Source of the DNA: Octopus vulgaris
Taxonomy: Eukaryota
Assembly: GCA_951406725.2 (NCBI GenBank)
Contig: OX597838.1
Location: 19,282,001 to 19,346,000, forward strand
DNA: 64,000 nucleotides
Direction of reading: 5' to 3'
The notes beneath the pieces are model-generated. The model did not search any database and was not told where the DNA came from. It worked only from the letters and a program-made list of their open reading frames with translations. How positions within the stretch are numbered: the first letter of the stretch is position 1; each line of letters begins with the position of its first letter. Shown one piece after another: positions 27,649-33,600 of this stretch. Made by a program: the position numbers and the translations under genes.

Positions 27649-30600
27649 GTAGGTTCCTGACATTTTTCTCAATTTGCCTCAGTCAGTCTCTCTGCCCCCC
27701 CTCTCTCTCTCTCTCTATATATATATATATATATATATACATATTCAAGGCGGCGAGCTGGCAGAATCGTTAGCACGCCGGGCGAAATGCGTAGCCGTAT
27801 TTCGTCTGCCGTTACATTCCGAGTTCAAATTCCGCCGAGGTCGACTTTGCCTTTCATCCTTTCAGGGTCGATAAATTAAGCACCAAGATATATTCGACTT
27901 AATCCGTTTGTCTGTCCTTGTTTGTCCCCTCTGTGTTTAGCCCCTTGTGGGTAGTAAAGAAATATATATATATATATATATATATATATATATATATATA
28001 TATATATACATACATATATATTTATAGAAATGGTAAGACAACAAAAGAATGAATGAGACCTTGATATTATGTAAATAGAGGAATTTATCTGTAAATATAA
28101 TATGTGACAATTATTCAGTAGCCATGATGGTGATTATGGTCATTATAAGAAGTATTAGCAATGTTTTTTTGTTTCTCTTTCATATCCCTATACAAACTAC
28201 ACTTTACAGTGTGCCCACCGTTTTGAAGAACTTCTCATTAAGGACCGACACACGAATCCAAATAACTACCCTTCTGAAGGTTTGAATCATCAACAGTTGC
28301 CCCCACAAGAAATTCAAGGGTCAAGCATTGACCCCCTCCTCACCAAAAAAGCCCCAATTGGACATCCAAAATCCAAAGGTCAGTTATATTTACTTGGTCC
28401 CTCTTATCTGTTTATGGTTACAGCAATGGGAAAAAGAACCTCGAGGCAATTGGGGGGTCAGTATTTTGAAAATGTATTGGTCAGTGTAAATGTAAATTTA
28501 AATCCAGATATAACGACCATCTTTCAAATTTTAGGCACCATGATAAGAGACATTCAATGACTCTTAGCATTAATCTAGAGGATTAAAGGCAAAGGGACCA
28601 AATCCGACATCAAATTGGAAATCTTCTCGAAAGCCAGACGCCTGTATTAACAGGTCCAAATGAGGTTCAGGGTGTTCTCTTGAAAAACTATATCCCTTAA
28701 CCCTTTCGTTACTGTATTTATTTTGAGAAGCTCTGTGTTTCTTTTAATTATTTTAAATATAACAAAGAATTTAGTAAAATAACTCAGTTGTCATTAAGCT
28801 AGTGGTAGGAACATAAATTGTGACTTAGCTTTGGTGGAAGATTTTTATTCAAAACTTATGAAAACAAGACATTTGTACTACAGAGCCAGAGTTGGTTTCA
28901 GCCGGGTTGGTAACAAAAGGGTTAAGGAACTTGAGAGCCTCCAATGATTATGTCATAAATTCCAGAAATGAGACTTTTTCTGTATGTTCACATTTTAAGA
29001 AATACATCTTGGTGAAATAGACCAGCAGATAACATAGTAATCCAATAATATCTTGCTTACATCTGTTCATTGTAATGTCATTGGGTTATTGTAATGTTGG
29101 TTATCTCTCTTGTGTTTTTCTTTTTGTCTTCTTCTTTATCAGCGTCCTTTGTTTTGAATGTCATCTGCTTAAAAAAAGCAATTGACAAATGGTCTTGGTC
29201 TCAGATAGAAAAATAGTAATAAATTAATGTTTCAACTAGGAAACCTAGATAGTCGTATTTAACAAGACCTTGTAGGTTTTATTATCAAATTACACACATC
29301 ATCCTTATCGTCATTGTTCGACCGTGGTCGAGATAGTGGAATTTACCATGCTATGCCAGACTTCACGGTCCATCATAGCATTACGGAGGTCCTGTTGCTG
29401 GATGCCTGTATCCCTGGAGATTGCATCAGGGTAGGAGAGTGTGCGTCCTCTGGTATTGCGAGTAGATGGCTTCCAGAGGAGAAGAGGAGAAATTGCCTCG
29501 TTTTCAGCTCTACAACAATGTCCAGCAAACTGGACTCTCCTACCTTTCACAAGAGATGACACAGGTGGTAGTTTCCCATATATCTGCATTTTGGTTGGAT
29601 GACGCTTCCATGAGAGATTTTGAGATCTCATAAGGAGGCGAGTGTAGGTTCCATCCAACCGCCTCCCAAGCTTCTTTGATAACGTCCAGGTTTCTGAGCC
29701 ATATAGTAGAATTGGTTCGACTGTGGCTTTGAAGATTTCAAGTTTGAAGTCTCTACTTAGATTTGATGACCAAATCTTACACACACACGCAAACACACAC
29801 ACACAGTATTAAGTATTGGAATATTTTTGTTGCAGGTTTTAAAGATAAAGAACATCATACAGAGAAGGTAAAGACTTTTCCGTTTTGTTATTGTTTGTCC
29901 ATGCATTTGAGAGTTATGAGCTTTATACTCTTACTCTTTTACTTGTTTCAGTCATTTGACTGTGGCCATGCTGGACAAATCAACCCCAGGACTTATTCTT
30001 TGTAAGCCCAGTACTTATTCTATTGGTCTTTTTTGCCGAACCACTAAGTTACGGGGATATAAACACACCAGCATTGGTTATCAAGCGATGCTGGGGGAAC
30101 AAACAGAGACACAGAAACATACACACACACATACGTATATATATATATATAATATTAATTAAGGGTAGAAATTGATATTTATCAATTAAGACCAGTGGTC
30201 TAGCATATTAAAAAAGAATCCGAAGATTAAAATATTTATATATACCAATTAAGGACTGAACACGAAAAGTGGACAGTCAACATGCTAGATATAGACGTCA
30301 AAACGCCATTCTCCACAAAAGATTATGTTCTCAGATCAAACTCAGCACAAAACCATAGCAATAAACAAGTGAAAATATACGAAATAAAATAATTACCCAT
30401 GTACTAATTAGTTTCGGCTGTTATTTTCCGCAAGGAAAACTGCAGCCATCATCAGCATGGTCCGTTATAAATGCAATTTGCTGGACTAGATGCAAACACG
30501 ATACCGAAATATCGCGTGCATGGAGTTCAGCCTATTACATTTGAATATATCTTTCAAATGCCTTTACTTTGGCGCGTTGAGACCCGAGAAAACTAGCCTG

Positions 30601-33600
30601 CAGCTAATAATTAGCAGCAGTCAATTTATCGGTTAGAGAACATATTTATTTATATAAAATTAATTAAGGGTAGAAATTGATATTTATCAATTAAGACCAG
30701 TGGTCTAGCATATTAAAAAAGAATCCGAAGATTAAAATATTTATATATACCAATTAAGGACTGAACACGAAAAGTGGACAGTCAACATGCTAGATATAGA
30801 CGTCAAATTGCCATTCACCACAAAAGATTATGTTTTCAGATCAAACTCAGTACAAAACCATAGCAATAAACAAGTGAAAATATACGAAATAAAATAATTA
30901 CCCATGTACTAATTAGTTTCGGCTGTTATTTTCCGCAAGGAAAACTGCAGCCATCATCAGCATGATCCGTTATAAATGCAATTTGCTGGAGAATGGCGAT
31001 TTGGCGGGGATAAGTTGATAACATCAACCCCACTCCTCAACCGGTCCTTATTTTATCGATCCCATTTTCACAGTATTCCTTTCTGAATCTTCCTATAAGT
31101 ATTACTTTCCCTTTTCAGCCCACATTCATCCCAGAAGACATAACAGAAAAAGTGTAAGTTCTGACTTTCTTTCAAGTAGATTCTTTATTAGACAGATGTC
31201 CCCTATTACTTGCAATGTCGTCTTCACACTGTTGTCTAAAATGACCCCTCCGTTTGCTTTTGGCCCTTATGAAGTCCATAACTATGGTTAAAAGTGAGTC
31301 ACAATGGAAGTGAATCAGATGCCATGTTATTTGTCAAGAATGTGGCACAAGTGAATTCAAAGACATAGGGTGTATGGTGTTGGGATATGAACAGACACAT
31401 AAAGGTGGCGAGCTGGCAGAAACGTTAGCATGCCGTTCGAAATGCGTAGCCGTATTTTGTCTGTCGCTACGTTCTGAGTTCAAATTCCGCTGAGGTCAAC
31501 TTTGCCTTTCATCCTTTCGGGGTCAATTAAATAAGTACCAGTTATGCACTGGGGTCAATATAATCAACTTAATCCATTTGTCTGTCCTTGTTTGTCCCCT
31601 CTGTGTTTAGCCCCCTTATGGGCAGTTAAGAAATAGCTATTTCTCTACCATAAGAGAATCTCCCAGACAACAATACTCAACAACACACATAGGTAAAGAG
31701 AAAAAAAACAACGAATTCGCCCGGCTTTGATTAACTGTAGACGTGTTTCAGAGTTAGATAGATGTGAAAAATGCAAAAACCACATTTCCACTCCATCATT
31801 CTCGCTCTTCAGCACAGTATTTCAAGATTTTAGATTTGAGAGCACTGTACAAAATTAAACATAACTTATCTGATCAAGCGTCATCAGACAAACTACATCC
31901 AATAACCAGTACTTCCGAATTCAAACAAACAAATGAGGTCTTGTATTCTCCCTCACCCATCCACGTGCGGTATTGAGTAAAATTCTTCAGAAAAACTGTA
32001 GTTTACTATCAGGGAGAGAATTATATTAACAATAATAATAAAGGGTAAAATTAATTAATTAATTAATAATTAATTAATTAATTAATAATTAATAATCTTA
32101 CCATGTAGTTTGGCTTGTTAAAAGAACCATTATCAGTAAACTTAAACAGAAATTTTTATAATTATGAGTATAATTATAATTAGGGTTCAGCAAAAAATTT
32201 GCTTCACCATATACCAAAATTTAGAAATAGCAGTCAAAACTAGCCATTTCTCTACCATAAGAAAATCATTCTTACCATCTCATCTATTCTTTACATTTAT
32301 TTTTCATATTCTTTAACAATCACCCCCTAAATATACACCACAAACCCTGCCTATATTATTATTATATATATATATATATATATATATATATTCATATATG
32401 CACACACACATGTTTATATATATTTTCTTGTTTCAGGTCAATGATGATAATCAGAGTTTATGATGAAGCTAAAGATGGTAAATAAATCAGAGAATTGATG
32501 TTCAAATACCAGCCATGATGAATGCAAAACTTTCGATCCCATCACCACCATGTGGACGTCCGTGTACTGGAAGCTTTATTTAGGACAATGATCACTTTGG
32601 CTTACTTCTGCACTGCTCCCTAGTGGGTGGGGAACAATGTAATGGAATTGAATGCTTCCTACAGTGCAGAAGAATCCTCTTTGGGTCACACGAAGTGGTT
32701 CAGTGTTATAAGATGTGCATGATGTTGGTTCATATGCGTGTTAGTAGTTCACCAATAGATTAATGAGGCGGGGCTTGTGGTGTATATTTAGGGAGCGATT
32801 GTTCAAGAATATGAAAAATAAATGTAAAGAATAGATGAAAGGGTCAGAATGGTTTTTGAATGAAAAGGGTTCAAGGTTGCGGAGTGCTTTGATGGTTAGT
32901 CATGCGTGTCATTCGTGGCAATGTGGTGTATACGTGGAGTAGATGAAACCAGGACAACTGAAGAAGGGGAATATTCTTTATGTTGCATGTCTCGTTTCTC
33001 TGTTTGTTTTTTTAGTTGTTCGGAAAAAGTTCATTTTCTGTTTTTGTATTCATGCTTTCATTTCTCATTGTGTTCAACGTTTTTTTTTTTTGATGTCCTG
33101 TACCCATATATGCATGTATATATACATATATATGTAGGTATGTACATATATGTATGTATATATGCATATATATATATATTTACATATTATTTATATTATT
33201 ATATATCATCATCATCATCGTTTAACGTCCGTTTTCCATGCTGGCATGGGTTGGATGGTTCGCCCGGAATCTGGGAAGCCAGGAGGCTGCACCATCTGAT
33301 CTGGCAGAGTTTCTACAACTGGATGCCCTTCCTAATGCCAACCACTCCATGAGTGTAATGGGTGCTCTTTATGTGCCACCGGCACAGGGGCCAGAGGAGG
33401 CTGGCAAACGGACATGATTGGTCGGTGCTTTTTACATGTCACCGGCACGGGTATCACAACTTTAATTTCCATTTGATTTTTATTTTAATGTTGATGTACT
33501 TCCCTCAATAGGTCTCCTCAAGCACAGCAGGTCACTCTACAATTGAAGGTTAGCACAGCAGGCCATCTTACGAGCCATAAACTCACTTCATTTGTCGGGG

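Follow-up and report, generated by a model that had tools for sequence, protein, structure and literature searches.

A tandem hammerhead unit between two SANBR microexons

The window, that is, the whole 64-kb stretch of octopus DNA analysed here, carries a 332-bp repeat whose two copies align at an offset of 505 bp with 6 mismatches (Table 1), in agreement with the original prediction of a unit of about 330 bp with a 505-bp period. A motif scan of the window gave six matches, two of which are type I hammerheads on the minus strand, one in each repeat copy, reading in order CUGAUGA, an extra U, an interrupted 12-bp stem II, GAAAC, UAAUUA, GUA and stem I; the latter contains a U.G wobble in the 5' copy. 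An Rfam scan of positions 26000-35000 returned no hammerhead family among 39 matches at E≤1. The predicted cuts after the two GUA sites are spaced by exactly 505 nt, as had been proposed, and six-frame translation of 30140-31010 gave short frames only, bearing out the statement that the repeat holds no ORF. The hammerheads had further been described as intact with a palindromic stem III; the motif is indeed present in both copies, but the palindrome in its exact form, CTAATTAG, is in the minority, occurring in 21 of the 120 hammerheads of the young subfamily.

Table 1. Features at the locus (positions in the window)
Feature	Position	Strand	Remarks
SANBR microexon, upstream	about 29835-29867	+	peptide identity
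3' end of main arm ('long' fixed end, unit position ~255-268), runs into (TA)n target tract	30137..30153	-	end recurs at many loci
3' repeat copy, 332 bp	30154..30485	-	
'Short' fixed end seen elsewhere in the family (unit position ~160-173), lying inside the insertion at this locus	30232..30245, also 30737-30750	-	95 nt from long end, PLE-type tail
3' type I hammerhead	30397..30460	-	C3 30455, GUA 30404-30402, predicted cut 30402/30401
Predicted 505-nt monomer, 34% GC	30402..30906	-	prediction
5' repeat copy, 5'-truncated at unit position 425	30659..30990	-	
5' type I hammerhead	30902..30965	-	C3 30960, GUA 30909-30907, predicted cut 30907/30906
Inverted stub, unit positions ~90-109, 4-nt overlap at junction	30987..31006	+	20 nt
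SANBR microexon, downstream	about 31119-31154	+	peptide identity

Two features of the locus, the inverted stub and the (TA)n target, were absent from the original prediction. By our own comparison, 19 of the 20 bases of the stub equal the mid-age subfamily, and it is likely the remnant of a second arm; the window copy would then be a 1.7-unit insertion that kept its long arm, with its short arm present only as the stub.

The translations of the flanking microexons are 100% identical to residues 177-199 of an O. bimaculoides SANBR protein and lie on the plus strand, with the SANBR BTB exon at 34773, confirming that the repeat is antisense to this gene between two of its microexons. This position looks incidental because the sense pre-mRNA contains only the complement of the ribozyme, and the locus is probably an incidental intronic insertion.

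A dispersed family of non-coding arrays

The count of genomic copies suggested with the original prediction yielded 482 exact occurrences of a 32-nt hammerhead pattern, compared with 0 for the reversed-pattern control, and tandem arrays at many loci; a family search scored 38 of 1737 candidate places and obtained 202 matches there. The loci examined individually numbered 73 (33 + 40), as against the 482 pattern matches. The family is dispersed and multi-copy, with arrays of 2-7 units over many chromosomes, a tandem period of 505-507 bp and a type I hammerhead in consecutive units without coding capacity. Older subfamilies extend down to 72-74% identity, the old one likewise being a non-coding tandem unit. 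The window locus is not special but one short member of a family of non-coding hammerhead tandems. A plant-type LTR retrozyme, in which type III hammerheads lie in LTRs around a unique body, does not match the type I topology and the reiteration of the whole unit in other loci.

Hammerhead pairing and folding

Among 22 hand-picked rows, stems I and III were paired in 100% of 213 cells, with double changes at 3 of 10 pairs, including a change from A-U to G-C at the inner stem III pair that is impossible inside one hairpin and forms only between two hammerheads; 2 further double changes were located in outer stem II. The covariation amounts to few independent events among three related subfamilies, and 263 of 500 shuffles reached 3 covarying pairs. 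The lowest-energy fold of a two-hammerhead transcript contains the inter-hammerhead stem III (pair probability of 0.49 versus ~0.01 for the intramolecular form), while for a single hammerhead an inactive fold is predicted to be better by 3.5 kcal/mol. The tandem hammerhead dimer of the original prediction thus gains support from covariation and folding; the dimer itself we infer, because one hammerhead can alternatively close its own stem III, as a weak hairpin of 3 bp. The predicted fold of the 505-nt monomer as a circle reaches −124.8 kcal/mol (z=−5.06 versus 60 shuffles).

The closing pair of stem II is G.U, not G-C, in 118 of 120 young-subfamily hammerheads and U.U in the old subfamily, and hammerhead activity may therefore be weak. 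Self-cleavage of the locus RNA to the monomer is a prediction of this modelling.

Insertion ends and arms

The insertions sit in (TA)n, with (TA)n at their 3' ends, and usually comprise two head-to-head arms ending at two fixed sites 95 nt apart. In the first set of 33 loci, 27 were two-armed, with 24 combining a short and a long end, 1 having two long ends, none having two short ends and 2 being unclassifiable; the second set of 40 loci, chosen by position, included 24 multi-armed insertions (21 short plus long, 3 unclassifiable). Across both sets, 45 of 46 classifiable two-arm insertions pair one short with one long end (P=7 × 10−13 if ends chose independently at 1:1), and a subfamily of only 72-74% identity has these two fixed ends as well. 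A short end paired with a long one is the Penelope 'tail' signature, in which an inverted 5'-truncated arm is accompanied by a tail on one end. The 5' ends, by comparison, were uniform across the unit (60 arms, KS p=0.67) and not clearly concentrated at the cut site, where 4 fell against an expectation of 1.8. Fixed 3' ends and random 5' ends characterize a dispersed family that is mobile by retrotransposition. No empty-site joint was found among the 15 listed of 202 joints in sequencing runs.

Variants within and between arrays

Comparison of 71 full units revealed differences of 0.48% within arrays and 0.85% between them, with identical unit pairs making up 29% and 1.5%, respectively. Fourteen private variants occupy every covering unit of their own array, 11 of them on both arms, and 2 of the 14 are ancestral states found in the window copy. 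At 7 family-level polymorphic sites, 27 arrays were pure for the minor allele and 5 were mixed, two of the latter because of a third, unrelated base; all 33 of 33 arrays had a single type of stem III loop. Similarly, 26 variants common to several arrays fill whole arrays and only 1 is present in a subset of units. Variants are thus mostly fixed over all units and both arms, as would be expected if a single monomer had been copied repeatedly. Eight variants were confined to a subset of units (for example in L072, L068 and L030) and point to local duplication after insertion; L066, mixed at a family-level site, is not explained by a single monomer.

Two further candidate signals were rejected. 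An AT-to-GC excess among array-fixed variants (10 versus 5, p=0.004) disappeared after polarizing with the mid subfamily (7 versus 8, p=0.12), and length variation near the cut site, a candidate ligation scar, proved to be stem III loop variation and not junction heterogeneity.

Coding partners and sequencing runs

No RT or endonuclease frame adjoined the unit at any of the 33 first-set or 40 second-set loci, of the latter, 30 were solo-hammerhead loci, for which the sequence covered reached 4.5 kb upstream; 2 tblastn matches lay more than 1 kb away. The retrozyme-like reading of the original prediction holds in this respect, the copies at these loci being more than terminal pLTRs of coding Penelope elements, and Penelope is likely the mobilizer and not an alternative to that reading. 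GIY-YIG and protein searches, in which only the best of thousands of candidates were scored, identified three families that are young and intact and encode RT+GIY-YIG (one of 781 aa, two of 775 aa), all of which target (TA)n, two having two fixed ends. Their terminal repeats showed no significant similarity to the unit by blastn or by local alignment against shuffles. Two apparent fusions with a coding element were dismissed, as the fragment at L171 ends in its own (TA)n ~650 bp away and that at L129 follows the 3' end. At L106, a deleted RT fragment lies upstream, its meaning being uncertain.

Of four sequencing runs only guessed to be RNA, three contained the unit at low depth and one almost lacked it. 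Their contigs, which are blind to level, strand and ends, showed no cover of the SANBR microexons and, relative to DNA runs, no enrichment of the unit over a neighbouring repeat.

Proposed mechanism

On balance we consider it probable that the locus is a non-LTR retrozyme insertion whose RNA self-cleaves to a unit-length circle that is copied in trans by a Penelope-like RT-endonuclease. Transcription of a locus with two or more hammerheads would allow two of them to pair via the self-complementary stem III, as the covariation suggests, and to cut at both GUA sites; by analogy with the axolotl, coral and mussel retrozymes, the 505-nt monomer would then be ligated into a circle. A Penelope-like enzyme would make a double-strand cut in a (TA)n tract, and reverse transcription would be primed from two internal sites separated by 95 nt, each serving one DNA end, in keeping with the fixed ends and their pairing. 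Each polymerase would circle the template through the cleavage junction and halt at a random point, giving the random 5' ends, and the two cDNAs would be joined head to head, giving the inverted arms. A further-reaching version, which we advance tentatively, posits a long-lived protein-free lineage of RNA circles in octopus, reverse-transcribed by rolling circle, in which a dimer of the Penelope-like enzyme primes each end of a single DNA break from its own fixed site on the circle, under a near-absolute rule of one site per end, with hammerheads selected to act as dimers.

Insertion in the Anolis Penelope system did not require hammerhead cleavage, the dominant in vitro substrate of that enzyme being uncut RNA (PMC11167929). 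Of 9 retrozyme dimers from Xenopus, a single one was cleaved in vitro (10.64898/2026.07.22.740005). These arrays might belong to a Penelope-mobilized non-coding family templated by uncut linear read-through RNA, lengthening by strand transfer between direct repeats or by multimer copying, with the hammerhead trimming transcripts or being a passenger. The Anolis substrate, the weakened stem II closing pair in most copies and the mixed L066 array agree with this, and uniform arrays would likewise result if strand transfer recurred on one short RNA; we nevertheless consider a linear template rather unlikely, as hammerhead core and pairing, with covariation of the dimer type, have been kept over ~27% divergence, shuffles fold far less well than the circular monomer, and multimer copying predicts index-specific variants, against the single shared subset variant observed beside 26 filling whole arrays.

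For vertebrates, a local process has been suggested, with a solo terminal repeat inserted at each site and amplified as a minisatellite by unequal crossover (10.64898/2026.07.22.740005). Private mutations common to adjacent units in L072, L068 and L030 indicate that some local duplication happens, yet such growth is very improbable as the general source of the arrays, given 11 private variants common to both inverted arms and 2-7 units on many chromosomes with fixed 3' and random 5' ends in each; the octopus data favour multi-unit copying at insertion. Least credible of all is a reading of the copies as the usual tail ends, truncated on the 5' side, of a coding Penelope-like element: their anatomy matches Penelope ends, but the arms traverse as many as five complete units and enter no ORF, the 40 second-set loci lack an adjoining coding frame, and the old subfamily is a non-coding tandem too.

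Relation to known elements

Non-LTR retrozymes are an already published class, for which Penelope-like elements are only a 'strong candidate' for the moving agent and tandem cDNA from circles is proposed, not demonstrated, as presented in PMC7229834; the two internal start sites were found in vitro, with later steps left unvalidated (PMC11167929). The octopus family provides in-genome evidence on both counts, by combining a hammerhead unit free of coding sequence, the two-end signature of Penelope, the 45-of-46 rule of one site per end and array-wide fixation of variants. Insertions likely copied from unit-length circular RNA would show how animal retrozymes spread, and if the circle lineage and dimer priming are true, the genome would preserve a record of how the Penelope 'tail' arose as well as of the retrozyme life cycle. 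The young intact RT-endonuclease families in the same genome open the question of circular versus linear template to direct in vitro test.

Titles and abstract openings listed for hammerhead ribozymes in octopus described no such element, with Repbase/Dfam and subscription journals outside this scope, and the family may already stand as a catalogued repeat. Combining hammerhead, cephalopod and circular RNA returned only twister ribozymes, and no work pairing retrozymes with rolling-circle reverse transcription was found.

With endonuclease-positive PLEs (PMC8557442, PMC3846280, PMC11167929), the family shares partial tandems, an inverted 5'-truncated arm, a tail on one end, two internal reverse-transcription start sites, an AT-rich or (TA)n target and a hammerhead in the repeat; unlike them, it is without any ORF, has a tail of 95 nt versus 30-40 nt, and reiterates the whole unit where PLEs reiterate only the terminal repeat. 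PLE-derived vertebrate retrozymes (10.64898/2026.07.22.740005) are likewise non-autonomous hammerhead tandems coexisting with Penelope-like elements, and the octopus unit falls within their range of 51-972 bp. The Penelope link rests in vertebrates on terminal-repeat similarity and co-occurrence, whereas in octopus it rests on the insertion signature, the three young families offering no similar terminal repeat.

The metazoan non-LTR retrozymes of coral, mussel and axolotl, as described in the main text of PMC7229834, which mentions neither cephalopod nor octopus, are also short low-GC tandems with one type I hammerhead per unit, no ORF, a predicted highly paired circle and a weak stem III suited to dimer cleavage. 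Cleavage and circles have been demonstrated there and are predicted for the octopus family; the octopus unit is longer (505-535 bp versus 170-400 nt), and its inverted arms, two fixed ends and (TA)n target are not among the features described in that text. Furthermore, the axolotl HHR_Amex2 carries U.U at the base of helix II, as does the old octopus subfamily.

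A retrozyme-like family with a copy in SANBR

The 505-bp-offset repeat of the original prediction was recovered in the window (6 mismatches over 332 bp), as were a minus-strand type I hammerhead motif in each repeat copy, predicted cuts spaced for a 505-nt monomer, and a location within SANBR (plus strand) between two microexons, which match the O. bimaculoides SANBR protein exactly and were also found in the O. sinensis protein. Because Rfam models did not recognise these hammerheads (scan of window 26000-35000), the call was based on core sequence and covariation. Contigs from DNA runs of three studies (three of the four runs compared) begin within the element and extend into unique flank at 31400, which excludes misassembly as the source of the 5′ junction. 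The window copy somewhat predates the youngest wave: it carries ancestral bases at several sites at which most young copies are derived, and at each of its six internal differences only one of the two repeat copies departs from the mid-age subfamily. An isoform of 251 aa bearing the O. vulgaris label leaves out three SANBR microexons of this region together; we propose no connection between this and the insertion.

The genomic copies, which the original prediction had proposed to count, number in the hundreds: the exact 32-nt hammerhead pattern gave 482 matches (reversed control, 0), and a similarity search of the same genome, in which 38 of 1737 candidate places were scored, yielded 202 matches with top identities of 97-98%. 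Young, mid-age (~95% identical) and old subfamilies (72-74% identical; period near 535 bp; 2753 candidates) all consist of non-coding, circularly permuted tandem units. By its sequence-level features the family would work like a non-LTR retrozyme, a class that is already published together with its Penelope link. No cephalopod retrozyme was found in the main-text parts of the literature covered, including PMC7229834 and a 2026 preprint, whose supplements (model figure S9 and invertebrate examples S6 of PMC7229834, and those of the preprint) may bear on this.

Coordinates of features (window positions unless a genome locus, L plus number, is named)
Feature	Position	Strand	Remark
Repeat copies	30154-30485; 30659-30990	minus	
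Predicted cuts	after 30907; after 30402	minus	
Inverted 20-nt stub	30987-31006		beside the long arm
Intron-like stretch	30901-30761; 30396-30256	minus	within unit
Three consecutive SANBR microexons	29835-32476	plus	11-13 aa each; in O. bimaculoides and O. sinensis proteins
Old-subfamily copy	56697-57292		both arms, another SANBR intron; 82% identical to an old copy, 68% to young unit
Small TA-inserted elements	~24981; ~32055	plus; minus	
Small TA-inserted element	L038:2500-2790		
Palindromic element	42893-47927		another SANBR intron
Its hammerhead-like motifs	43024; 47861	minus; plus	near each outer end
Further hammerhead family	11412		
Young RT+GIY-YIG families with upstream ORF	L049:768-4468; L132:1726-5321; L191:1275-5182		

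Insertion anatomy

On the 3′ side, insertions stop at either of two fixed places in the unit, the short and the long end, which are separated by 95 nt, and continue into (TA)n; the 5′ ends of arms are spread uniformly over the unit. Among 33 loci picked by similarity, 27 had two head-to-head arms, pairing a short with a long end in 24 cases and two long ends in one (none short with short; two unclassifiable). A second sample of 40 loci, taken by position among the first 100 listed pattern matches (30 of 31 solo matches and 10 clusters on contig 1), contained 24 multi-armed loci (21 short with long, 3 unclassifiable). In some one-armed loci (L013, L162 and L164) the complementary end survives as a few bases, and the window copy joins a long arm to an inverted stub. 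Passages of PMC8557442 and PMC3846280 describe a Penelope-like signature in which a truncated arm is inverted and one end bears a tail. The tail corresponds to two internal reverse-transcription start sites described in parts of PMC11167929, whose enzyme, a predicted dimer, both cleaves and extends each of the two strands. We infer that unit insertions use one start site per DNA end. This two-end signature was not found on a retrozyme in the main-text parts of the same literature.

Other small TA-inserted elements end in a motif resembling the long end, possibly a shared recognition signal. The unit also contains a stretch that is intron-like by sequence: GT stands five bases past the cut site, and a pyrimidine tract with AG precedes the short end by 11 nt; the old subfamily retains both GT and AG, and introns in Penelope 5′ UTRs are described in part of PMC8557442.

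Template and ribozyme

Units differed by 0.48% within arrays versus 0.85% between arrays. Fourteen variants, private within the sample of 33 loci out of hundreds, occupied every covering unit of their own array, 11 of them spanning both arms; for two of these 14, the variant is an ancestral state that the window copy also shows. At family-level alleles, 27 arrays were pure and 5 mixed. Such uniformity would be expected if a single monomer had been copied over and over, and the array data fit equally a circular template and one short RNA on which strand transfer recurs. The picture is not clean, in that eight variants were confined to subsets of units, mostly adjacent, indicating local duplication after insertion, and one locus (L066) was mixed at a family-level site. 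Array-wide fixation as evidence of a monomer template was not found in the main-text parts of the same literature. In four runs only guessed to be RNA, the unit appeared at low depth in three and barely in one, far below a neighbouring repeat, in contigs uninformative on level, strand or ends. Circles would be lost under poly(A) selection.

Across 22 hand-picked rows from the three subfamilies, every one of the 213 cells of stems I and III was paired, and three double changes occurred there; two more came from outer stem II, for which anchors set the alignment, MAFFT having put the gap in the wrong place. Stem III occurs as three different perfect 10-nt palindromes across the subfamilies and also in forms of odd length, whose middle base is unpaired, and is more degenerate in 12 of 45 mid-age and old hammerheads. 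A change of the inner stem III pair from A-U to G-C retains self-complementarity across the would-be monomer tetraloop and so favours a dimer; since it is one evolutionary event, this support is suggestive. Predicted folding agrees with a dimer, with an inter-copy stem III (P 0.49) in the two-hammerhead transcript and an inactive form better by 3.5 kcal/mol for a single hammerhead alone. The stem II closing pair is G.U in most young copies, U.U in old copies and G-C in both window copies; parts of PMC7229834 report that U.U at this place leaves an axolotl retrozyme able to cleave, with the dimer doing so better, and part of 10.64898/2026.07.22.740005 that only one of nine Xenopus dimers cleaved.

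Relation to coding Penelope-like elements

The original prediction would have been refuted if all unit copies were terminal repeats of coding Penelope elements, but in the loci sampled they are more than such ends. In tblastn with two Penelope-like proteins, none of the 33 array loci and two of the 40 further loci matched, both more than 1 kb from the unit. The family is not an autonomous Penelope-like element. Inspection showed the match at L171 to be a separate insertion; that at L158 was judged by its coordinates and flanking sequence alone.

Three young intact RT+GIY-YIG families (one of 781 aa, two of 775 aa) insert in (TA)n, two with two fixed ends and the third with one clear end. None had significant sequence in common with the unit, so none is identified as its partner. 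Their cysteine linker before the endonuclease fits, by description, the Neptune/Nematis account in part of PMC8557442. In all three, the RT ORF is preceded by another ORF, 454-557 aa between stops, that shares 82-94 nt with it in the -1 frame; where they overlap, a U run ends in UUA, which suggests programmed frameshifting; endonuclease-positive elements are called single-ORF in the abstract of PMC8557442, and its Fig. 1 legend gives an optional frameshifted ORF1. One 775-aa family (G000) appears extremely young, all 110 scored copies being 100% identical over a 373-aa query, and has, ~180 nt from its 3′ end, a hammerhead-like motif of which one core base is non-standard.

Other hammerhead and hammerhead-like elements

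A second, unrelated non-coding palindromic element of ~5 kb comprises two inverted ~2.5-kb arms of low-complexity sequence, just one of which bears a tail (~64 nt), and is flanked by (TA)n at either side. Several further hammerhead families occur in the genome (L039; L034/L063; L086/L090/L093; one in the window), and L086 has a coding fragment of Penelope-like type, together with (AAT)n, in its vicinity.
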